A stretch of DNA of 9,468 nucleotides, from the NCBI GenBank assembly GCA_030668875.1, contig DAOVER010000080.1, positions 1 to 9,468 of the forward strand, given 5' to 3'. A program made the translations under genes and the position numbers. Source of the stretch: Candidatus Heimdallarchaeota archaeon. GTDB lineage: Archaea > Asgardarchaeota > Heimdallarchaeia > Heimdallarchaeales > Heimdallarchaeaceae. Positions within the stretch are counted from its first letter, which is position 1, and the number at the start of each line of letters is the position of its first letter. The notes beneath the pieces are model-generated. The model was given only the letters and a program-made list of their open reading frames with translations, made no database searches and was not told the DNA's origin. Shown piece after piece: positions 1 through 9,468 of the stretch.

Positions 1-3000
1 GGTTATTTCCTTGCATTAAACGCTACCTCAGGAAGTGGGGTATTGTCAGTATATCGCTATGATGATGGTATCGCTACATTTCTTGAAGATTATTCTGGAC
101 TCGTTGATTTATCAAAAGATTTCAATTTTGGTATTTCTGTCACCGCATATTCTAGTTATATTCTTATGGAACTTATTTTGGCAGATCAAGTATTAGGCAG
201 TATTCTCGACTATACTACCACCTATTCAATTGGAGGTTATACAGGAACTGCATATTATAGGAATATAGATGGGTTGTACGGTGTAATTAATTCATATGGT
301 GTATATCACAAATACTATTATCCTACCTCTGACCATTTGCAGTTTGATACTTCAAGTAAAGATAATGCTTTTGTTGCTGGGAAGTTACACGTTGATTCAG
401 GTTCACTACAAACCGACATTCTTGACTTCACAGAACAACAAACTCTAACCCTTGTTTTTACTTTTGAACAATGGAACCCACATATTTTCATTGGACTTTC
501 AACTGCAGCTTATAACTATGGTTTCAGGTTCTATATGGGAAATGTTTACAAGAGAACTAATTCAGTTGATGAACTTCTGGAAGATGATTGGTGTAAAAAA
601 AATATCGGTCGTACGATGTATATTACTATCGTTTACGGTTTATCTGATGGTAGTTTCAATATGCAATTATTCACTGATAAATCTTTCAGACCAGTTGAAG
701 GTGACCCCCTCTATATTTCTTTTAATCCTTCCTTCACTGAACCTATTTTCGAAGTATCCAACCTATCTACATATCGTGCTGATTTAATTGTTGAAGCTGT
801 CGAACTCGGAGGAGTATATCCTATCGATGTTGAATTTGATGATGGTTCTTCAACTCACACCTTACGCGGTTCTGGAGAGATAGCTGAATACTATCTACAA
901 GCAACTTCTCAAGGTAGTTTGAAACTTAATTCTCTCATTGAATCTATCTTCATGAAAAGACAGTTCTATGTTCTAGATGGACAAAACACTACCATAGCTT
1001 TGAGTTACTTATCTCCTGGTTATCATGCGGAATCTTATTCAATTTTAATCTACAATCAAGAAGGTGTTTATCTAAACATTTCATTTTCAAGTGGTAGTAA
1101 TAATTGCGAAGAAATCACAGTTTACTATAATAATACTGTTGTAATGGAAGAGTTATTTTCTTACTCTGTTCCCTATTATCAATGGATTGATCTCTCTCTT
1201 ACAATTTCTCCATTATTACAAGTTTCCTTTCAAGTATCTCACCGAGGAGGAAGCTTTAGTGATTCCAGCTCTTTATCATATTATTTAGATGTCGATTCCT
1301 ACTATAATATCAAGATAATTAAACCTCAAAGTTCAGCTGATTACTCTCTTTATTTTTCGTATATTTCAGTCTATAATGGAGCAGGATTTTCTAGTAGTTT
1401 TACTTCAGGAGATTTATCAGAATGGATTTTCAGCGATAAACAATATTTCGAATATTCTCATGATATTAGCACATCTCCTGATCTATTATCACTATATGCT
1501 GAACCCTTAGGTGGATGGGCAGATTTTACTGTTTCAGTAGATGATGGTGCCTATGTACGAACCACCCGACTTCAAGTAGAAGATTTTGAGACTTTCAAAC
1601 CTTATCTAATTTTCCTTCCAAATAGAGTTGATACTACTGAAATTCATAAGTATACAATAATAGTAAATGGCATCCTTACAATATACAGTCTCTCTTTCCA
1701 AGAATCACTGTTAATTAGTGATTGGCTTGTTGCTAAACCATTGGATATTAATAATGAAGAGATACTAAATGATTTTACTCAAATAGGTTATTTGTTAGAG
1801 GATTTTGAAACTGATACTTTTTCTAATATCGATGTAGTTTCAGATCCTACTTCAACACTAGGAAATGTTGGAAAAATCATTGGTGAAGAAACACTTTCCT
1901 TAGGTTCATATATTGGCGGTCTATGTCAGAATGATTTAGATTTATCTTTGTATTATTATTGGAATGGTTTAGGAACACATTATCCATTTGAATTGGAATA
2001 TATCGTTACAAATGAATATCTTGTTCCCTCTGATCAAGTTGAAGAAAGAACAATCCGTGCAATTATTACTCCAGTTATCGCAGATGAACCTAATCAACCT
2101 TTATTTGATGCATGCTATACTGATGGTTCTAATTCTTCCATTAGTTATGTGCACTTCAAATTCTCCTACGTTCCAAACACTTGGCAGTTTGTTTATCTCA
2201 ACCTTGCTTCAATTACTGCTTATTCTGAACAAGAAACTACTAATCCTGAAGAAATCTCTGGACAATGGCAGCTACGGTGGTTTGAAGACATTATTTTCAA
2301 CAACCCTCAGAATGGAGCAGAGGTTTACATTGATGATATTCAAGCCTTCAATATTTATAATGAAGAAAGAGAAGTCTCACCTTTTGCTAGAGCCTATTTA
2401 CGAACTTCAAGTCTTAATTATGGAACTGAAGGAATATGGGTTCCCGAATATGTGAATTCATTAGGTTTTCTAGACTTTTCTCTTATTTCAAATAATGAAA
2501 CTACTCTAGCTACTGAACAAGCTGCTTTTATTGTTGAATGTGATAAAGAAGCTGATGTTGTGGTACATGTTACATCTACTCATCCGTTCATATTATATCA
2601 AGGACAAGTAATTATGGAACATGGTACCTGGATTTCTCCAAATGATCCTGTTGATTACTATTTCACTCTTCATGTTTTTGAAGGAGTAAATCGTTTCCTC
2701 ATCCGAACTTTCCATAAACAGAATGGTCTATTTCCTTGGCAAATCAAAGTTGATTTTCTTACCCAAACCAGTGTTAGAATGATTTCCTCCACTTATGAAG
2801 CTAGAGATGAATCCAAAGTTTTTGATAATTCTTATGAATATTCTATTGCTGATTGGTTAGTTTCCGATAGACCAGTTTCTTTTGGTGATTTAGATTATGT
2901 CAGTTATGATAAAGACCCATTTGTTGAACTTGATGAGAATACTGGTCATTATTTCGCTACTCGTTCCTTACCTTATCCTGATGAACAGTTCAATTACACA

Positions 3001-6000
3001 ATCCACCTTGATCAATATGATAAAGATATAACTGAATGGGTTGGTTTTGATGAATTTTACAATGAAACTGGGTATATGTCCTATATCGATTCCAATATGA
3101 ATACTACTTCTATTGAATTTACTGACCAAATTATTTATTATACTAATTTACACTTTTTGGAGAGCTCTCCTAATGATAATACTCTAAAAATACTTCTTAA
3201 TTACGACCCAACCTCTTTGGTTGAAGCCATGTATTTTGATGGTCAATACATTTATGGTAGATTAGGAGAAATTGGTTATCTTAACTCTACTTCTGATTTT
3301 GTTAACTATATTTCAGTAACTGAATTCAATGGTGCTTATATTCTAGAAATACCTTTATCTGATGCTTGGGAAACCTTTGGCTATGACTTTGAATGGCAAA
3401 ATTGGATACATTCACGTTTTGATGTAGAACCTGAAGCGGGTAAAATAGATATTAGCGGTCGTAATAATCCTTCCAGTGCTGGTGTTCATAGATTTTCTTT
3501 AGTCTTACGATGTCCTGATAATCTTGATTATATCTCATCTGATATCTTTGACATCCAAGCTAATCTTACAAAATATGATGATTCCATAAACACGTTCAAC
3601 CAAATAACTGAATATATTTCAACAAAGCAATCATTATCAGAGCTTTCTCCGCTACTCCAAACTGATGGTGATTATCGTTCATTACCAAGTTCGGGATTGC
3701 AATCTGGTAAGCAATCTTATGCTGGTAAAAAAGTTCTTGAGAGTGAGGTTTCTTGGGATGGTTTCAGATATCATACCATGCGTTTTGTCCTAATTGGAGT
3801 AGATCAGTACGGTAAATATGAAAATATGAATGGAGATGAAACTATTGACGAAAAAGATGCTACAGGTTTAGCTACTTATATGATTGTCAATGATGCTGGT
3901 ACAAAGCACGAACATACTAGTATTGTTCAACACATGATTGGTCCAGAAGGACAAAGTGGAGACTTGCAACCAACCTTGTTATGTCCTAGGTATACTATGA
4001 CAGCTTTTGCAACAGATAGCCTTCTATTCTCTACGTCACATCTTAAATTGTCTCAGACTTCAGCATCAAATTCAAGCATTTCACCCTTGTCTCTTGAACT
4101 TCTTCTTTCGGAAGGCAAACTCACTTCATTCAATATTGGTTCAATTTCCTTAAAGGATGATACTTACAAACAATCATTGAGTACTTTCCTAGCTTCCGCT
4201 GAATCTGATATTTATATTAGCTTTAGTCTTTCAAATGAAATCAGATTTACTTCTGGAAATGAAACTATTTCTTTAGATATTGAATACATCTCTCTTGTTG
4301 TCGGTGAATATAGAGTTGATTTTAGTAAATATCTTCAGAAACTTTCCATTAGTTATAGTGATAACAGAAATCTAGAAGTTATTGAAATCCATTTACTTTC
4401 CAGAGTTATTACTCATACTGATCCTATCGCTTTACACAAAAGCTATCATAAAATTGGACAAGTAAATGGTTTTGCTATTTATGATTATAATAAGATTTTA
4501 GCGATTTCTGAAGGAAAACTTTCTCCTCCTCAACAAGTTTCTCTTGGTCTTTTTGATACTCTAGCTACATATTTGACCAAAATTAAAGGTGGTTTTCTAA
4601 CCGTCATTGATGGTGTTAATAATGTTCTTGATAGTTTTACTGTTCGTTATCCTGGATTAAATAGTCGAATTAACTCTTGGTTTGAGAACTTACAAGATTC
4701 TGTTCAAAACACTCTCTCTTACATCGGTAATGTTGTTACTCAAACTGTTGAACGCATTCTTACCATTTTTAACGATGTTGTTAACATCATCACTAATTCT
4801 CTTATTGATACTATGCAAGGTATTATTGATTGGTGCATCCAACTTTTCAAAGATGCTATTATAGCTTATCAAATCCTCACTAACGCAGTGAAGAACTTCT
4901 TAGCAAAAGCTACAGCTTGGATATCTGAAGCATGGGACAAAGTTTCTGAATTCTTCAAAATGATAGGACAGGCAATAACTGATTTCTTCAAGATGTTAGG
5001 TCAAATTGCTCTTAAGATTATCAAAGGTGTTGCTTCATTCTATGCTGATCTTATGAGGGTTGGTATTCTCTTTATCTTCTCTATTCTATTTGGTACTAAT
5101 GTTGGTCTCCATGATACTCAAGATTTGATGTATGTTGATGGAACTTACGTTTTCGATAATCAAACTGTAACCAATTATCCTCAAGTTTACAAATTAGATC
5201 ATGTTATTGATGTACTTGCTGGTAGAACTGATTTAGAAGGAGAACTTACTGAAGAGGAGCTTGCTGAAATAGCAGAAAATTCTCTTAATCAAGGTCAAGG
5301 AGACAATGCAAATCCAGATCAAGCTGAGAGAATGCTTGCTGAGATGGGGTGTGAGACACAAGGTTTGACTGAAAAAGAAAAAGATTTCTTTGACGTCTTT
5401 AAATGGGTTTGTGCAGTAGAAGATGGAGGTCAATGGGATTATTATTTTGGATTAAGGAAACATCTCAGACTCTATGGACTTAATCTCTTCAGTGAAAATA
5501 CATTCATTCTAATCTGTGAAATTGTAATTGGTTTTCTACCTCTTGGTGGTTTAATTCAAGATGTTAAAGATGTATGTTTAGAACCAATGAAATTTTTCAG
5601 AATATTTGCAGGAGTAATGATTCCTCTTGATATAACAGAGCTTTTTGGGAATGTTTTATCACAAGTTTTTGGAGGATTAAAAGATTCTTGTGCAGGAAAA
5701 GGTATTGGAAAAGCATTAGGTGGCATAAAAGAATTTATCAAAACTATATTTGGTAAGGTTGCAAAGAAATTAAAGGAACCTCTGAAAAGAATACTGAAGG
5801 TTGCAAAAAATGCTTCTCTATTCTTCGTTGCACTACTATGTATGGTTACAATAATATTAATTCCAATGAGTGCTCTTGTATTTGTAGGGTTAGCAGCAGC
5901 CTTCCTGGTAATAATTGGATTTATAATATTCATTGTTGCTGCTTTTAAATTTCTAATGAAACGAATAATGAAACCATTATTTGAGCAGATGTTTAGAGGA

Positions 6001-8940
6001 TTATCTTGGTTGATAAGCAAAACAGGAGATGGCATAAAGAAACTTTTCACAATGGCTGATGAGTTAGCTAAAGGATTATTGACAAGAATAAAGAATAAAA
6101 TCGCAGATATATTCTCTGTTTTATGGAAGAAAATTAAGGGATTATGGGAATTTGGTAATTGGAAACCTTGGAAAGATACTCGAATGCCTTGGTGTGTTGC
6201 GTGTTACTCAAATCTAGCAAAACGTAACATTAATGATGTCTTTGAAGTCATTAAAAACGGAGATGAAGTTTGGGCTACAATAAAGAATCTTGATCCTAGT
6301 TCATGGGATGCAATAAAACATGGAGCTGATTTCGGTTTTCCTGAAGACATTCTTAAAATGGATGCAATAGAAGAAACTGCAAGATTGATATCACCAGGAA
6401 AGTCAGTAGATGAACTGTTTGAAGAAGGAGGAGAATGGACAACAAACGCGAAATTCAGGGAAAGATGGCTCGATGCATCAAATGCTTTCTATAAATCATA
6501 TAAAGAAACAATAGGAAATTTAGTTGCTAAAACCACTATCAAGCAAAATCTGATTGATCTTCAAAGGACTCTTCCCAAAAACAATTTTATTGACCAAGCA
6601 CTTCAGAATGCGGAAATAAACTCAATTGATGATTTAGTCAATGATCCAGATGCTTTGAATGCGGTTTTTAAAAACAGTCAAAATCTAGAAGGTTTGTGGA
6701 AATTCTACTTGGAACAAGCAAATACTAAGTTAGCTAATCTAAAAATTTCAGATCCAGAACTTGCAAAATGTATAACTGAACTAACCGAAGAAGAAGCACA
6801 AGCATATGCAAAAACACTACTAGTACTATGTGGAGCAAATTCTGATCTAATGACACAACCTCCCGGTCCCAAGGTAGCTAATGCGTATGCTGAACCCTTT
6901 CAGAGAGCATGGATAAAACTAAGAATCGATGAAGATGAAATAAGAAACATAATGTATACTGACAAATTTGATGAAATACTTTCCATTGGAAATCCAGGAA
7001 AATACGAAAAAGGTGTGAACCTAAACAATGGATTCGATGATATTCTCATTGGAAAAACTGCTGATAATGCCTATTATTTGAGCTTCATCGAACAAAAAAC
7101 AAATAGCATCAAAATGGTTTGGCTGAGAGATGGAAAGGGTACTGAAGCCTCTCAAAAAATCTTCTTAAATGCAAAGGAAAGTATCGATGATATAGAATCA
7201 AAACTAATTACTTTAGGTTTCTCAAAGAAGGAAGCAGAACAGATAATAGATAATTTATTAAGTAGAGCTAGAGGAAGTCCCCCTAACATTGGAATTGATT
7301 TCTTAAGAAAAGTATCTAATGGAGATTTGCTTGAAACATTAAAAAAAGTGGAACCAGCGCTAGATCAAAATACTATAAATGAAATTATGGAAGCTGCTAT
7401 TAAACAAAATCAAATAATTTCCCTTATTGAAACAGGTTCAACATTTAAAATGGCTTTTGATGAAAATGGTTTTCTAACTGTTTTGAAGAACCAAGAAGAA
7501 CATGTAACAAACATTATAGATTTGAAATATATAAATAAACAGAATAATATTGTAGACATTAAATTTGATGGCTCAATTTTCAAAATAGATATTGATTGTA
7601 ATACAAATAAATTAGTTATTCCTGAATTTCCTGGCAACAACATCAATTTAGATAGTTTAACCACTGCAGAGAAAAACGCATATGTAGAAATCAATCAACT
7701 AATTCAGGATTCTGTTTCAAACATTGAACTTTCTATCATTGGTTTAACACCCAATGAAATCGCTGGTAGAGTAAATCAAATGCAGAAGGCAATTTATGAC
7801 AAATTCATATGTAATAATTTATTTAAAGAACTTCAAATCCTATCAGAAGGAAGTGTTGATTTCAGTTTAGAAACACTATCTAATCCCTCGTATGCAGCTT
7901 TAATTGCAAATCGATTGGAATCCTTTTGTGATACCCATAGTATAGTTACATACAATAGACATCAACAATGGACAGTACCTTTTGGTCAAAGATTTAGTGA
8001 GGTATTTGGAGGATATAGAACTGAAAGTGAGATTCAGAGAACCTTAAAGGAAAAATTAATGCGGTCAGCTTTACTTAACTCTGATTATGATGTTAGTGAC
8101 ATGTCTCTAGATGATTTAGAATGTCTTTTTGAATCCGACCCTGAGTTATGGAATGTAATAATGAGAAACTATAGTCCAGATACATCTACTCCTAGCGGAC
8201 CTTTCTTCAGACGAACATCTGGTGGAAGAAAGAAGACTCTCTATCCATACGATAAAAGCGGTAATCCTTTATTGAAAGATGGTAAAGAAATCTATTTTGA
8301 ATTTGATTTAGATAGCATTATTAACAAACTAAATTCTGAGCATCAAATTAATGATATGCTATTAAAAAATCCTGTTAAATTTCATTACGTGGATGGACAT
8401 TTATTTGCTGATTTTAATTACAATAGAATTGACGGTTTAGCTGAATCATGGGTAGACTTTCTCCGAAAGAAATACTCTGGAATTATTCCAGATGAGCAAT
8501 TTGAGCAACTATTATCTCGATCTAATCTTGAGCATTGTTGGGGTGTAAATTTATTTGATTTTGAAAATTCTGAAGATATGTTCCTTTTTATTATAATTCT
8601 TGAAGAATATAAGAATAATTGGGACGAATTTGCAAGGATAATAGATGATGGTATTGCAAATGGTTTCATAGACTTGGCAAATGATATAGATGTCTCAGTA
8701 CGCAGTACTGGAAGCGGTTTTGTGAATATCGACGGGGAAGAGTATACATTGAGAATGTTAAGTTCTGGGAATGATCGAATGAATTGGAATAAATATGAGA
8801 TTCCATGTGCAAAATCAGGTTTTGAAAGATTGTTAAATGATATAAAACAGCAGGTTTATGTAACAGTATTAGGATTTCCAGAAGATGTTACTGCAAAAAG
8901 TTTTCTTGATTGGATAACAGCAAATTGGCATTTTCTATAG
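1..8940 (+). CDS. Giant (at least 2979 aa, 5'-partial) multidomain surface/membrane protein with a putative PD-(D/E)xK nuclease domain; polymorphic-toxin-like
   Basis: Frame 1 has no stop from base 1 (GGT TAT TTC CTT GCA TTA AAC GCT ACC TCA GGA AGT GGG GTA = GYFLALNATSGSGV) through the TTG at 43 to TAG 8938-8940. A stop-free frame of 8.9 kb in AT-rich DNA is certainly coding. The product call rests on the motifs listed below. Confidence 0.93.
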   Translation, partial: GYFLALNATSGSGVLSVYRYDDGIATFLEDYSGLVDLSKDFNFGISVTAYSSYILMELILADQVLGSILDYTTTYSIGGYTGTAYYRNIDGLYGVINSYGVYHKYYYPTSDHLQFDTSSKDNAFVAGKLHVDSGSLQTDILDFTEQQTLTLVFTFEQWNPHIFIGLSTAAYNYGFRFYMGNVYKRTNSVDELLEDDWCKKNIGRTMYITIVYGLSDGSFNMQLFTDKSFRPVEGDPLYISFNPSFTEPIFEVSNLSTYRADLIVEAVELGGVYPIDVEFDDGSSTHTLRGSGEIAEYYLQATSQGSLKLNSLIESIFMKRQFYVLDGQNTTIALSYLSPGYHAESYSILIYNQEGVYLNISFSSGSNNCEEITVYYNNTVVMEELFSYSVPYYQWIDLSLTISPLLQVSFQVSHRGGSFSDSSSLSYYLDVDSYYNIKIIKPQSSADYSLYFSYISVYNGAGFSSSFTSGDLSEWIFSDKQYFEYSHDISTSPDLLSLYAEPLGGWADFTVSVDDGAYVRTTRLQVEDFETFKPYLIFLPNRVDTTEIHKYTIIVNGILTIYSLSFQESLLISDWLVAKPLDINNEEILNDFTQIGYLLEDFETDTFSNIDVVSDPTSTLGNVGKIIGEETLSLGSYIGGLCQNDLDLSLYYYWNGLGTHYPFELEYIVTNEYLVPSDQVEERTIRAIITPVIADEPNQPLFDACYTDGSNSSISYVHFKFSYVPNTWQFVYLNLASITAYSEQETTNPEEISGQWQLRWFEDIIFNNPQNGAEVYIDDIQAFNIYNEEREVSPFARAYLRTSSLNYGTEGIWVPEYVNSLGFLDFSLISNNETTLATEQAAFIVECDKEADVVVHVTSTHPFILYQGQVIMEHGTWISPNDPVDYYFTLHVFEGVNRFLIRTFHKQNGLFPWQIKVDFLTQTSVRMISSTYEARDESKVFDNSYEYSIADWLVSDRPVSFGDLDYVSYDKDPFVELDENTGHYFATRSLPYPDEQFNYTIHLDQYDKDITEWVGFDEFYNETGYMSYIDSNMNTTSIEFTDQIIYYTNLHFLESSPNDNTLKILLNYDPTSLVEAMYFDGQYIYGRLGEIGYLNSTSDFVNYISVTEFNGAYILEIPLSDAWETFGYDFEWQNWIHSRFDVEPEAGKIDISGRNNPSSAGVHRFSLVLRCPDNLDYISSDIFDIQANLTKYDDSINTFNQITEYISTKQSLSELSPLLQTDGDYRSLPSSGLQSGKQSYAGKKVLESEVSWDGFRYHTMRFVLIGVDQYGKYENMNGDETIDEKDATGLATYMIVNDAGTKHEHTSIVQHMIGPEGQSGDLQPTLLCPRYTMTAFATDSLLFSTSHLKLSQTSASNSSISPLSLELLLSEGKLTSFNIGSISLKDDTYKQSLSTFLASAESDIYISFSLSNEIRFTSGNETISLDIEYISLVVGEYRVDFSKYLQKLSISYSDNRNLEVIEIHLLSRVITHTDPIALHKSYHKIGQVNGFAIYDYNKILAISEGKLSPPQQVSLGLFDTLATYLTKIKGGFLTVIDGVNNVLDSFTVRYPGLNSRINSWFENLQDSVQNTLSYIGNVVTQTVERILTIFNDVVNIITNSLIDTMQGIIDWCIQLFKDAIIAYQILTNAVKNFLAKATAWISEAWDKVSEFFKMIGQAITDFFKMLGQIALKIIKGVASFYADLMRVGILFIFSILFGTNVGLHDTQDLMYVDGTYVFDNQTVTNYPQVYKLDHVIDVLAGRTDLEGELTEEELAEIAENSLNQGQGDNANPDQAERMLAEMGCETQGLTEKEKDFFDVFKWVCAVEDGGQWDYYFGLRKHLRLYGLNLFSENTFILICEIVIGFLPLGGLIQDVKDVCLEPMKFFRIFAGVMIPLDITELFGNVLSQVFGGLKDSCAGKGIGKALGGIKEFIKTIFGKVAKKLKEPLKRILKVAKNASLFFVALLCMVTIILIPMSALVFVGLAAAFLVIIGFIIFIVAAFKFLMKRIMKPLFEQMFRGLSWLISKTGDGIKKLFTMADELAKGLLTRIKNKIADIFSVLWKKIKGLWEFGNWKPWKDTRMPWCVACYSNLAKRNINDVFEVIKNGDEVWATIKNLDPSSWDAIKHGADFGFPEDILKMDAIEETARLISPGKSVDELFEEGGEWTTNAKFRERWLDASNAFYKSYKETIGNLVAKTTIKQNLIDLQRTLPKNNFIDQALQNAEINSIDDLVNDPDALNAVFKNSQNLEGLWKFYLEQANTKLANLKISDPELAKCITELTEEEAQAYAKTLLVLCGANSDLMTQPPGPKVANAYAEPFQRAWIKLRIDEDEIRNIMYTDKFDEILSIGNPGKYEKGVNLNNGFDDILIGKTADNAYYLSFIEQKTNSIKMVWLRDGKGTEASQKIFLNAKESIDDIESKLITLGFSKKEAEQIIDNLLSRARGSPPNIGIDFLRKVSNGDLLETLKKVEPALDQNTINEIMEAAIKQNQIISLIETGSTFKMAFDENGFLTVLKNQEEHVTNIIDLKYINKQNNIVDIKFDGSIFKIDIDCNTNKLVIPEFPGNNINLDSLTTAEKNAYVEINQLIQDSVSNIELSIIGLTPNEIAGRVNQMQKAIYDKFICNNLFKELQILSEGSVDFSLETLSNPSYAALIANRLESFCDTHSIVTYNRHQQWTVPFGQRFSEVFGGYRTESEIQRTLKEKLMRSALLNSDYDVSDMSLDDLECLFESDPELWNVIMRNYSPDTSTPSGPFFRRTSGGRKKTLYPYDKSGNPLLKDGKEIYFEFDLDSIINKLNSEHQINDMLLKNPVKFHYVDGHLFADFNYNRIDGLAESWVDFLRKKYSGIIPDEQFEQLLSRSNLEHCWGVNLFDFENSEDMFLFIIILEEYKNNWDEFARIIDDGIANGFIDLANDIDVSVRSTGSGFVNIDGEEYTLRMLSSGNDRMNWNKYEIPCAKSGFERLLNDIKQQVYVTVLGFPEDVTAKSFLDWITANWHFL
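370..1380 (+). other. Beta-rich N-terminal region, probably two concanavalin-A/LamG-like (lectin-fold) domains
   Basis: Alternating hydrophobic strands rich in S/T/Y/D, e.g. TLTLVFTF..HIFIGL..YGFRFY..MYITIVY and YQWIDLSLTI..VSFQV..YSLYFSYISVYN. The fold is assigned from the pattern only. Confidence 0.35.
1714..2760 (+). other. PA14-like beta-sandwich domain 1, interrupted by an inserted CBM-like domain
   Basis: First strand ISDWLVAKP (1714-1740). The domain resumes at GIWVPEYVNSLGFLDF..AAFIVECDKEADVVVHVTSTHPFILYQGQVI..FTLHVFEGVNRFLIRTFHKQNGLFPWQIKV. This resembles the recalled pattern I.DWLV.GP..G.IDF..AY..I.S....V.L..GSDD..V..NG..V..L..G.N.LLIK. Confidence 0.5.
1786..2352 (+). other. Galactose-binding-like jelly-roll carbohydrate-binding module (CBM4/9, CBM11 or CIA30-like)
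   Basis: Starts YLLEDFE (1789-1809), contains PNTWQFVYLNL and ends GAEVYIDDIQAF (YIDDI 2326-2340). The EDFE..W..V.I.L..YIDDI pattern is typical of this fold. Confidence 0.6.
2845..3510 (+). other. PA14-like beta-sandwich domain 2 (diverged paralog of domain 1)
   Basis: IADWLVSDRP (2845-2874) parallels ISDWLVAKP, and AGVHRFSLVLR (3478-3510) parallels EGVNRFLIR. The segment IIYYTNLHF..LKILLNYD..AMYFDGQYIY parallels the central strands. Confidence 0.4.
3823..3858 (+). other. EF-hand/dockerin-like Ca2+-binding loop
   Basis: NMNGDETIDEKD matches the 12-residue loop pattern (D/N)xNxDxxIDxxD and is followed by a short helix (ATGLATY). Only one copy was seen. Confidence 0.45.
4546..5094 (+). other. 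Long amphipathic alpha-helical tract, tape-measure-like
   Basis: About 180 aa with a single proline and a continuous hydrophobic face (..WFENLQDSVQNTLSYIGNVVTQTVERILTIFNDVV..AWISEAWDKVSEFFKMIGQAITDFFKMLGQ..). W/F/F fall at 11-residue spacing in its distal part. It ends in a short hydrophobic segment, VGILFIFSILFG. Confidence 0.55.
4948..5013 (+). repeat. Degenerate 33-bp (11-codon) tandem duplication
   Basis: gaattcttcaaaatgataggacaggcaataact / gatttcttcaagatgttaggtcaaattgctctt, with 19 of the first 23 nt identical. The copies encode EFFKMIGQAIT and DFFKMLGQIAL. Confidence 0.7.
5518..5580 (+). other. Pre-toxin (PT-TG-like) motif
   Basis: EIVIGFLPLGGLIQDVKDVCL resembles the GFIP.VG.I.D..D motif that precedes variable toxin regions in polymorphic toxins. 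The downstream TG..L...ER part of canonical PT-TG is not evident. Confidence 0.4.
5812..5946 (+). other. 45-residue uncharged hydrophobic segment (two-helix membrane hairpin)
   Basis: ASLFFVALLCMVTIILIPMSALVFVGLAAAFLVIIGFIIFIVAAF contains no charged residue and has a Pro-Met-Ser turn near the middle. Both flanks are K/R-rich (KKLKEPLKRILKVAK and KFLMKRIMK). Confidence 0.85.
6868..7140 (+). other. Putative PD-(D/E)xK (restriction-endonuclease-fold, Tox-REase-like) nuclease domain
   Basis: Helix KVANAYAEPFQRAW (E at 6892), strand NNGFDDILIG (D at 7036) and strand YYLSFIEQKT (E at 7090, K at 7096). The order and spacing match the E..G[FI]D....[YI]I.E.K core of REase-fold toxins. Confidence 0.55.
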
Positions 8941-8946
8941 AAAGTG

Positions 8947-9053
8947 TGGTAGTCCATAGGAGAAAATCGAACAGATATCACTCAAATATCTGTTTCTCGA
9001 ACTCCTGCCGCCGGATTCAAAGTCCGGTATCCTTGCCGCTAGACTAATGGACT
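8947..9053 (-). tRNA. tRNA-Gln: tRNA-Gln(UUG), intron-containing, CCA encoded, archaeal type
   Basis: Minus strand: AGTCCAT TA GTCT AGCGGCAA GGAT A CCGGA CTTTGAA TCCGG CGGC AGGAG TTCGAG[32-nt intron]T CTCCT ATGGACT A CCA. The acceptor (7 bp), anticodon (5 bp) and T (5 bp) stems pair perfectly, and the D stem has two G.U pairs. The anticodon TTG is at 9020-9018 and the spliced length is 75 nt. A1-U72 is the archaeal tRNA-Gln signature, whereas bacteria typically have U1-A72. Confidence 0.96.
8964..8995 (-). other. 32-nt tRNA intron at non-canonical T-loop position 59/60 with a relaxed bulge-helix-bulge motif
   Basis: The intron is AAACAGATATTTGAGTGATATCTGTTCGATTT. It has an inner 9-bp helix AACAGATAT/ATATCTGTT, a central helix TTCG/CGAT (3 WC pairs plus U.U) and 3-nt bulges AGA and TTT. 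Cutting after the 2nd nt of each bulge restores a 7-nt T-loop, TTCGAGT. Confidence 0.88.
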
Positions 9054-9060
9054 TACACTT

Positions 9061-9095
9061 ACTTTCTTTCATTTATGTATCCTTTTTAATTTTTT
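9061..9095 (+). terminator. Possible oligo(T) terminator for the giant gene
   Basis: This is the first T-rich tract downstream of the giant CDS on the + strand (actttctttcatttatgtatcctttttaatttttt). Archaeal intrinsic terminators are oligo-T tracts. Positional inference only. Confidence 0.25.
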
Positions 9096-9097
9096 CC
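9083..9097 (-). promoter_or_regulatory. Candidate archaeal BRE-TATA promoter for the tRNA
   Basis: The minus strand reads GGAAAAAA-TTAAAAA: a purine-rich BRE-like run followed by a TATA-like box about 30-36 nt upstream of tRNA position 1. This would give a leader of roughly 5-10 nt. The region is AT-rich, so a chance match is possible. Confidence 0.4.
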
Positions 9098-9132
9098 ATT
9101 AAATTATCTTTTTGTATTACCAACTTTTCATC

Positions 9133-9468
9133 TTATTTTGCTGGTTTATCTTGTTCTTTTTTTATACTATCTGCAAAATCCTTTACATCAGAGACTTGTC
9201 TTATCATAAATGAACCACCTAAACCACCTAAAATGGAAATAACACCTATCCAGAGAAGAAATCCAAAACCACTTATTGCGACACCATATTTTGAGATTGC
9301 ATACAAACTAGCATAAATTATATTTAACAAACCTCCAAATGTTGCTAAAGAGAATACAAAGAAGATTGCTGGGTGGAACTTTTTATTTACTTTTATCAGT
9401 TCGGGGTCTCTTTTCCAATCCTCTTCAATTTCATTGTAATATTCTACTTGTTTCTTAGGTCTAAAAGG
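9133..9468 (-). CDS. Small integral membrane protein, 5'-partial (at least 111 aa), two predicted TM helices, function unknown
   Basis: The frame is open from the right edge: PFRPKKQVEYYNEIEEDWKRDPELIKVNKKFHPAIFFVFSLATFGGLLNIIYASLYAISKYGVAISGFGFLLWIGVISILGGLGGSFMIRQVSDVKDFADSIKKEQDKPAK, with stop TAA at 9135-9133. The track's start at 9330 is an internal TTG. Two clear hydrophobic segments lie between charged flanks. Confidence 0.75.
   Translation of the reverse strand, partial: PFRPKKQVEYYNEIEEDWKRDPELIKVNKKFHPAIFFVFSLATFGGLLNIIYASLYAISKYGVAISGFGFLLWIGVISILGGLGGSFMIRQVSDVKDFADSIKKEQDKPAK

Follow-up and report, generated by a model that had tools for sequence, protein, structure and literature searches.

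The window, i.e. the whole analyzed stretch of 9,468 nt, carries on its minus strand a gene for tRNA-Gln(UUG) whose T stem encloses 39 nt, compared with 7 nt in a normal T arm (Table 1). The acceptor stem consists of 7 bp (AGTCCAT/ATGGACT) with A1-U72 as the first pair, the D arm has the sequence GUCU/GGAU, the anticodon arm (CCGGA-CUUUGAA-UCCGG) exposes the anticodon UUG and the variable region comprises 4 nt. Deletion of 8995..8964 results in a 75-nt cloverleaf in which every stem is intact and both G53-C61 and U54-U55-C56 are kept, and which ARAGORN identifies as tRNA-Gln(ttg) with the 7-nt T loop TTCGAGT. The unspliced gene was not called by ARAGORN, with the intron option on or off, and gave no Rfam match at the gathering score, in line with the earlier remark that standard scanners may miss it; at a permissive threshold Rfam detected only the D and anticodon arms (19 bits). 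Weak snoRNA-like and RUF1 matches in Rfam lay far under threshold and were ignored.

The 50 nt located 5' of 42 tRNA genes from a custom scan of the same assembly were compared. In many of these genes an A-rich run precedes a TTAAAA-type box, at about 30-40 nt in front of the mature 5' end, and the two presumably represent a BRE/TATA promoter. The purine run and the box upstream of tRNA-Gln(UUG) are promoter-like and may have the same function.

Table 1. Coordinates of the analyzed features. Positions refer to the window unless a contig or locus is given; G000 is the assembly under study.
Feature	Position	Strand	Remarks
tRNA-Gln(UUG) gene	8947..9053	minus	107 nt including the encoded CCA (8949..8947) and the discriminator A (8950)
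5' exon, 58 nt, tRNA positions 1-59	8996..9053	minus	3' terminus is U54 U55 C56 G57 A58 G59
3' exon, 17 nt	8947..8963	minus	U60, T-stem 3' strand, acceptor 3' strand, A73, CCA
T arm	9006..8958	minus	stem AGGAG/CTCCT, 9006..9002 with 8962..8958; G53-C61 present
Promoter-like element, purine run and ATTAAAAA	9083..9096	minus	30-37 nt upstream of the tRNA-Gln 5' end
BHB intron, 32 nt, between positions 59 and 60	8964..8995	minus	junction defined by intron-less orthologs
Central BHB helix, exon strand TTCG (U54-G57)	8998..9001	minus	partner CGAT 8969..8966: U.U, U-A, C-G, G-C
Central BHB helix, intron strand CGAT (intron bases 27-30)	8966..8969	minus	constrained folds
5' bulge, A58 G59 and intron base 1 (AGA)	8995..8997	minus	predicted cut after G59 (8996)
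3' bulge, UU (intron bases 31, 32) and U60	8963..8965	minus	predicted cut before 8963
Intron hairpin	8970..8994	minus	perfect 9-bp stem, 8994..8986 with 8978..8970; loop TTGAGTG 8985..8979
tRNA-Phe(GAA) with T-loop intron	G000 C70:7503-7610	minus	loci L041, L042, L054-L111 cover Phe and Pro
tRNA-Pro(UGG) with T-loop intron	G000 C87:7985-8093	plus	loci L041, L042, L054-L111 cover Phe and Pro
Second EndA paralog, 182 aa	G000 C2:4044-4526; locus L002:1447-1995	minus	full-length

The 5' exon agrees with the intron-less orthologs at loci L008 and L009 as far as the junction. Around this junction the insert forms a bulge-helix-bulge (BHB) motif with an outer helix of 5 bp, a central helix of three pairs and one U.U, the bulges AGA and UUU and an inner helix of 9 bp, referred to as register A. 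This is the strict hBHBh' geometry with one mismatch; because of the U.U in the central helix the motif is slightly relaxed. The original prediction, tRNA-Gln(UUG) interrupted by a BHB intron at 59/60, is confirmed by the cloverleaf that is restored on removal of the insert and by the agreement of the ortholog junction. A group I or group II intron was dismissed, as the insert has 32 nt versus a ribozyme core of hundreds of nucleotides, and no Rfam match was obtained.

As had been suggested together with the prediction, related genomes (40 in total, with G000 as the assembly under study) were searched for orthologs of this gene. G021 contains the gene and the intron as in G000 (99% identical) with one change in the hairpin at 8988, and this hairpin variant recurs in an independent subsurface-metagenome contig. 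The insert was found in DNA contigs of two studies, which confirm the assembly at this locus; together with the orthologs this speaks against a chance feature. In G002 a diverged intron of 30 nt is present at 59/60; its stem sequence differs, the hairpin is kept and the loop reads TTGAGAG. G016 and G010, which belong to the same genus, possess a tRNA-Gln(UUG) without insert and with the T loop TTCGAGT. ARAGORN calls the genes of these two genomes as tRNA-Gln(ttg) and misses every intron-bearing ortholog. The loci of G002, G016 and G010 are syntenic on both flanks, and the comparison of G002 with G016 and G010 reads as a clean presence/absence of the intron at one orthologous site.

In a neighboring family the tRNA-Gln(UUG) gene is intron-less in three genomes. 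Other species of the genus have a second sequence type of tRNA-Gln(UUG), which carries a 32-nt T-loop intron in four genomes and lacks it in seven others; in the introns of this second type the loop reads TTGCGAG or TTGAGAG, and the 3' bulge comprises 5 nt. Among G000, G021, G002, G016 and G010 an aEF-2 tree supports only the grouping of G000 with G021, and EndA identity orders the relatives differently from this tree.

The sequence of the G000 precursor allows also a second register, B, which consists of a TCGA/TCGA helix with the bulge GAA and has the U-A, C-G and G-C pairs in common with register A. The registers differ in the partner of U(8970), which pairs with A58 in B and with intron base 2 in A, and in the assignment of the U.U to the central helix or to the outer helix. 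Register B is a one-base migration of the bulge and no separate fold. In a nearest-neighbor model both registers are populated, with energies of -13.4 kcal/mol for register A and -14.4 kcal/mol for register B, and the MFE fold of the precursor adopts register B. Excision in this register would lead to a 9-nt T loop, UUCGAGAUU.

If EndA also used register B or mixed the sites of both, T loops of 8 or 9 nt would arise, and the intron would reduce the output of functional tRNA-Gln or constitute a regulatory bottleneck. In favor of such ambiguous splicing, register B is fully Watson-Crick paired in the central helix, is more stable by about 1 kcal/mol and shows a pair probability of 0.45 for its specific pair compared with 0.30 for the pair specific to A. 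However, register B is not conserved: in a comparison of the T-loop intron helices by inspection and constrained folds, the central helix of G002 (TTCG/CGAA) is Watson-Crick paired at 4/4 positions in register A and contains an A.C mismatch in register B. In addition, the intron-less orthologs and all other tRNAs of G000 have 7-nt T loops, and the 3' bulge of register B is clean only if the U.U is counted as closing the outer helix. The gene is also the only one for a heavily used codon, and therefore a large loss to mis-splicing is unlikely. Taken together, we regard ambiguous splicing as improbable. Because the intron-less orthologs and the G002 helix fit register A, this register is most plausibly the productive splice of the tRNA-Gln(UUG) precursor, and register B appears to be a species-specific accident of sequence. 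The normal 7-nt loop UUCGAGU that had been foreseen for register A agrees with the ARAGORN call and with the loop of the intron-less orthologs. The idea of two competing registers holds insofar as both exist in the sequence and B gives a 9-nt loop, but as a biological feature it is not upheld, with B absent in G002.

The assembly comprises 3.23 Mb in 99 contigs with 33.8% GC and is 92% complete; the DNA runs containing the tRNA-Gln locus are marine-sediment metagenomes. Since CCA is encoded in all genuine tRNA genes of G000, we anchored a custom scan on CCA-terminated acceptor stems, removed BHB-like intervals and re-tested the candidates with ARAGORN. Together with ARAGORN's own calls this procedure revealed 45 tRNA genes, one per anticodon, and Lys(CUU) was the sole tRNA missing from this set. 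A weak Rfam tRNA match at contig C47 turned out not to be a tRNA. ARAGORN and Rfam miss tRNA-Gln(UUG) and 11 other genes that were recovered solely by the custom scan; without these the genome would appear devoid of several tRNAs, such as those for Gln, Phe, Asp and Ile.

An intron-less tRNA-Gln(UUG) elsewhere in the genome, proposed originally as one part of the finding that would point to a disrupted copy, was sought by a direct search of the whole 92%-complete assembly. Only one UUG anticodon arm of tRNA type was detected, and the second sequence type of Gln(UUG) that occurs in the genus had no match there. In the ORF adjoining the tRNA gene CAA occurs 84 times and CAG 22 times. The tRNA-Gln(UUG) gene is judged to be needed, because it provides the only UUG arm, the tRNA set is non-redundant and CAA exceeds CAG in the neighboring ORF. 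A disrupted or decaying pseudogene, with the working tRNA-Gln(UUG) in the unassembled part of the genome, would be compatible with the completeness of 92% and the 99 contigs, and a second gene could still lie in the missing part; the scanners do not call the gene, and Lys(CUU) was likewise not found. These points are opposed by the lack of a second UUG arm or of the other Gln(UUG) type, by the intact stems and by a promoter-like motif and a CCA end as in the other tRNAs. Furthermore, the BHB is kept in three species or strains despite sequence divergence and five other single-copy tRNAs share the same architecture. We consider the pseudogene very unlikely.

The 45 tRNA genes of G000 contain 25 introns (about 0.56 per gene). 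Fourteen genes have one anticodon-loop intron each, and two CAU tRNAs have both a D-arm and an anticodon-loop intron. Introns of 31-32 nt at 59/60 are present in six genes, besides Gln UUG in Gln CUG (C54), Phe GAA (C70), Pro UGG (C87), Asp GUC (C12) and Ala UGC (C41), the latter with a second intron at 37/38. The site 59/60 thus accounts for 6/8 non-canonical introns of this genome. In all six T-loop introns the bases U54-R57 are able to form a central helix, with 2 to 4 of the 4 positions paired and a 3-nt 3' bulge.

The genome encodes two EndA paralogs, each with N- and C-terminal Pfam domains. The paralog on C71 (185 aa) is most similar to the alpha subunits from A. pernix (3P1Z_B), S. tokodaii and P. 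aerophilum; the alignment runs gap-free through the crenarchaeal specific loop, K41 is located on A. pernix K44, and the motifs with the catalytic Tyr, His and Lys are present. Including G000, this catalytic paralog was found in 38 of the 40 genomes searched, and the EndA relatives are labelled as Candidatus Heimdallarchaeota MAGs. The paralog on C2 can be aligned with the N-terminal repeat of dimeric EndAs as well as with the enzymes from M. jannaschii and M. kandleri. It retains Tyr and Lys; the His column is occupied by Ile, and a His follows at the next residue. This paralog probably represents the structural subunit, but may not be purely structural; because Tyr, Lys and a shifted His are kept, the alpha and beta subunits were assigned by similarity. 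The host enzyme is, on this basis, most likely a heteromeric (alpha-beta)2 EndA of the relaxed-specificity type. This matches the earlier expectation of a relaxed-specificity endonuclease in the host, as judged by similarity from the two paralogs and the crenarchaeal-type specific loop of the alpha-like one. RtcB is also present in G000. It is located inside a 999-aa open frame (C91:83441-86293, plus strand), and its Pfam match is split by about 1.5 kb after profile position 50, which looks like an intein-type insertion.

Based on these data we consider it very likely that the locus is the one functional gene for tRNA-Gln(UUG) in the Heimdallarchaeial MAG of a mesophile from marine sediment, with one 32-nt BHB intron at 59/60; the gene would be transcribed, and its precursor cleaved and ligated as follows. 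In the precursor the T stem would act as the outer helix of the BHB, U54-G57 and the intron sequence CGAU would form a 4-bp central helix with one U.U, A58-G59-A and U-U-U60 would form the two 3-nt bulges and the 9-bp intron hairpin would serve as inner helix. The two-paralog EndA, read as an (alpha-beta)2 enzyme with a crenarchaeal-type specific loop, would cut after G59 and before U60, and RtcB would join the exons to the 75-nt tRNA with the T loop UUCGAGU.

In geometric terms the T-arm site 59/60 corresponds to the canonical site 37/38 of the anticodon arm. In both cases the 5' exon retains six loop bases and the 3' exon one, the central helix is built from the first four bases of the loop and the 3' part of the intron, and the cuts are placed after the second base of each bulge. 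Unlike an intron at 37/38, an intron in the T loop leaves the T loop and the D/T-loop elbow unable to form before splicing. The T-loop modifications at 54, 55 and 58 would consequently be expected to follow splicing.

We also analyzed the relationship between the T-loop introns of the genus. At least 15 of the 23 genomes of the genus carry the Phe intron; three genomes of the genus and other families lack it and have the loop TTCAAGT. The Pro intron occurs in many genomes of the genus and is absent in others including G016, with the loop TTCAAAT. The intron-less Phe and Pro orthologs display the predicted 7-nt loops. An alignment of the Phe and Pro introns revealed 23 identical bases out of 27 (z = 9.9 against shuffles), and judged by this identity the two introns are clearly related to each other. 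Their core CAGATGCGYTCTG is near-invariant across the genus, with variable flanking intron bases, and the Asp(GUC) intron contains a core resembling it. None of the other introns of G000 was significantly related in sequence to the Gln(UUG) intron. A 29-nt match to this intron in G005 (L024) is located outside any tRNA and was attributed to chance.

The T arms of 11 intron-bearing tRNAs were aligned with MAFFT (alignment A1, in which gaps break helices). Apart from Asp, all T-loop introns compared share TGNG, as TGAG or TGCG, in the loop of the hairpin irrespective of the stem sequence, and two G columns are invariant (chance about 1e-4 by a rough estimate). A K-turn or a box C/D element was considered for the Phe/Pro core CAGAUGCGYUCUGA and rejected on inspection: a plain Watson-Crick hairpin of 6-7 bp fits better, and the flanks are unable to form the non-canonical stem. 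Selection, and not descent alone, may maintain the hairpin-loop motif UGNG, which in Phe and Pro has the core CAGAUGCGYUCUG. It is conceivable, although we would place it on the doubtful side, that the Gln(UUG) intron belongs to a genus-specific family of T-loop introns of about 31-32 nt which spread among at least six isoacceptors by copying and is still gained and lost between sister species at syntenic loci. Such copying could proceed by conversion of a cassette of T arm plus intron, or by reverse splicing into the conserved T loop. If this were true, the genus would offer a natural system in which to study the arrival of archaeal tRNA introns.

Marck and Grosjean in 2003 and Sugahara et al. 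in 2008 reportedly described non-canonical BHB introns in Thermoproteales and other Crenarchaeota. The introns analyzed here are similar to the crenarchaeal ones with respect to the position 59/60 in the T loop, the T stem as outer helix, the 4-bp central helix and the two 3-nt bulges, and also in that related introns occur across tRNA types, here in Phe and Pro. In contrast to the crenarchaeal systems, the host is a low-GC (34%) marine-sediment Heimdallarchaeon and no hyperthermophile, its introns are rich in AT, their load is moderate with about 0.56 per gene, and 59/60 clearly dominates among the non-canonical sites. Position 59/60 is listed among the non-canonical sites in the literature, and non-canonical BHB introns including this site have been reviewed for Thermoproteales and other Crenarchaeota (PMC4090602). 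T-arm introns of nucleomorphs and of Cyanidioschyzon merolae are likewise non-canonical and depend on a protein endonuclease recognizing BHB-like motifs, but these are eukaryotic, often very short (3-24 nt) and processed by another enzyme complex (PMC4090602).

For Asgard archaea an (alpha-beta)2 EndA with an L1 loop has been reported (PMC5829648), as have many non-canonical tRNA introns, T-arm ones among them (PMC11291895; bioRxiv 10.64898/2026.10.13.758758). According to the latter, a census from 2026, two full-length EndA paralogs are present in 44/60 Asgard genomes, the introns called there are concentrated at 37/38 and in the T arm, most T-arm inserts form canonical BHBs, and Heimdallarchaeia have less than one insert per tRNA gene (bioRxiv 10.64898/2026.10.13.758758). 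The value of 0.56 for G000 agrees with this. Our results resemble the census also in that T-arm introns are a main class with mostly canonical BHBs, two EndA paralogs are usual, some introns are missed by standard tools, and gain and loss between relatives is repeated (bioRxiv 10.64898/2026.10.13.758758). They differ from it in one respect: its focal lineages contain almost no cross-isotype families, whereas the Phe and Pro introns are clearly related here (bioRxiv 10.64898/2026.10.13.758758).

These comparisons bear on two general statements of the original prediction. The intron was called rare, which does not fit with 6/45 tRNA genes carrying an intron at 59/60, with the wide distribution of the Phe and Pro introns in the genus and with T-arm introns as a main Asgard class. 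The view that such introns are known mainly from Thermoproteales-type crenarchaea is out of date for the Asgard lineage, where T-arm introns have been published. Site, motif and enzyme type are all published, and the tRNA-Gln intron by itself adds little new. Of modest added value in this context is that the 59/60 T loop is the preferred non-canonical site of this Heimdallarchaeial genus, that alleles with and without the intron alternate between closely related species at syntenic loci, and that two isoacceptors have a clearly related intron, which was rarely seen in other Asgard lineages by the recent survey (bioRxiv 10.64898/2026.10.13.758758).

The region flanking the tRNA gene was analyzed as well. 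On the plus strand an open frame of at least 2979 aa extends over positions 1-8940 of the window. It runs off the 5' end of the contig, is convergent with the tRNA gene and stops 7 nt before the 3' end of tRNA-Gln; it showed no Pfam match at E <= 0.001. The sequence located downstream of tRNA-Gln in G002, G016 and G010 is found upstream and inverted in G021 (cf. window 9054-9468; L006, L007, L008, L009), and in G000 and G021 the giant ORF lies on the downstream side instead. This arrangement points to a local rearrangement in G000 and G021 with a breakpoint adjoining tRNA-Gln, and nothing ties this rearrangement to the intron.

It had also been proposed that an insert in the 3' half of the tRNA could influence or record the integration of mobile elements, i.e. 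that it is a footprint of such an event or a barrier to it. Circumstantial support comes from the flank next to the tRNA, whose arrangement in G000 and G021 departs from that in G002, G016 and G010, and from a 5' fragment of a similar tRNA in G005. On the other hand, the two long ORFs of the 9.5-kb window had no Pfam match and no integrase was seen there; a duplicated tRNA 3' end was not detected in the assembly, where the sole match of the 3' exon is the exon itself. In size, place and fold the insert corresponds to a BHB intron, and such an insert recurs at 59/60 in five other tRNAs; in a published test mobile elements were not enriched near Asgard intron gains (bioRxiv 10.64898/2026.10.13.758758, section 2.5). 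We therefore regard a link to integration as extremely unlikely, and the BHB intron as the preferred reading of the insert.

Two observations concern partial matches to this tRNA-Gln type. The fragment in G005 (L014; G005:C92, about 2929-2961) is isolated and resembles positions 8 to about 33; it comprises the D arm and the 5' anticodon stem, without the acceptor stem and the 3' half. In two metagenomes, contigs match only tRNA-Gln positions 1-47 (9007-9053) with six differences and continue with unrelated AT-rich sequence. These contigs may represent the tRNA-Gln gene of a relative that is interrupted at another site.
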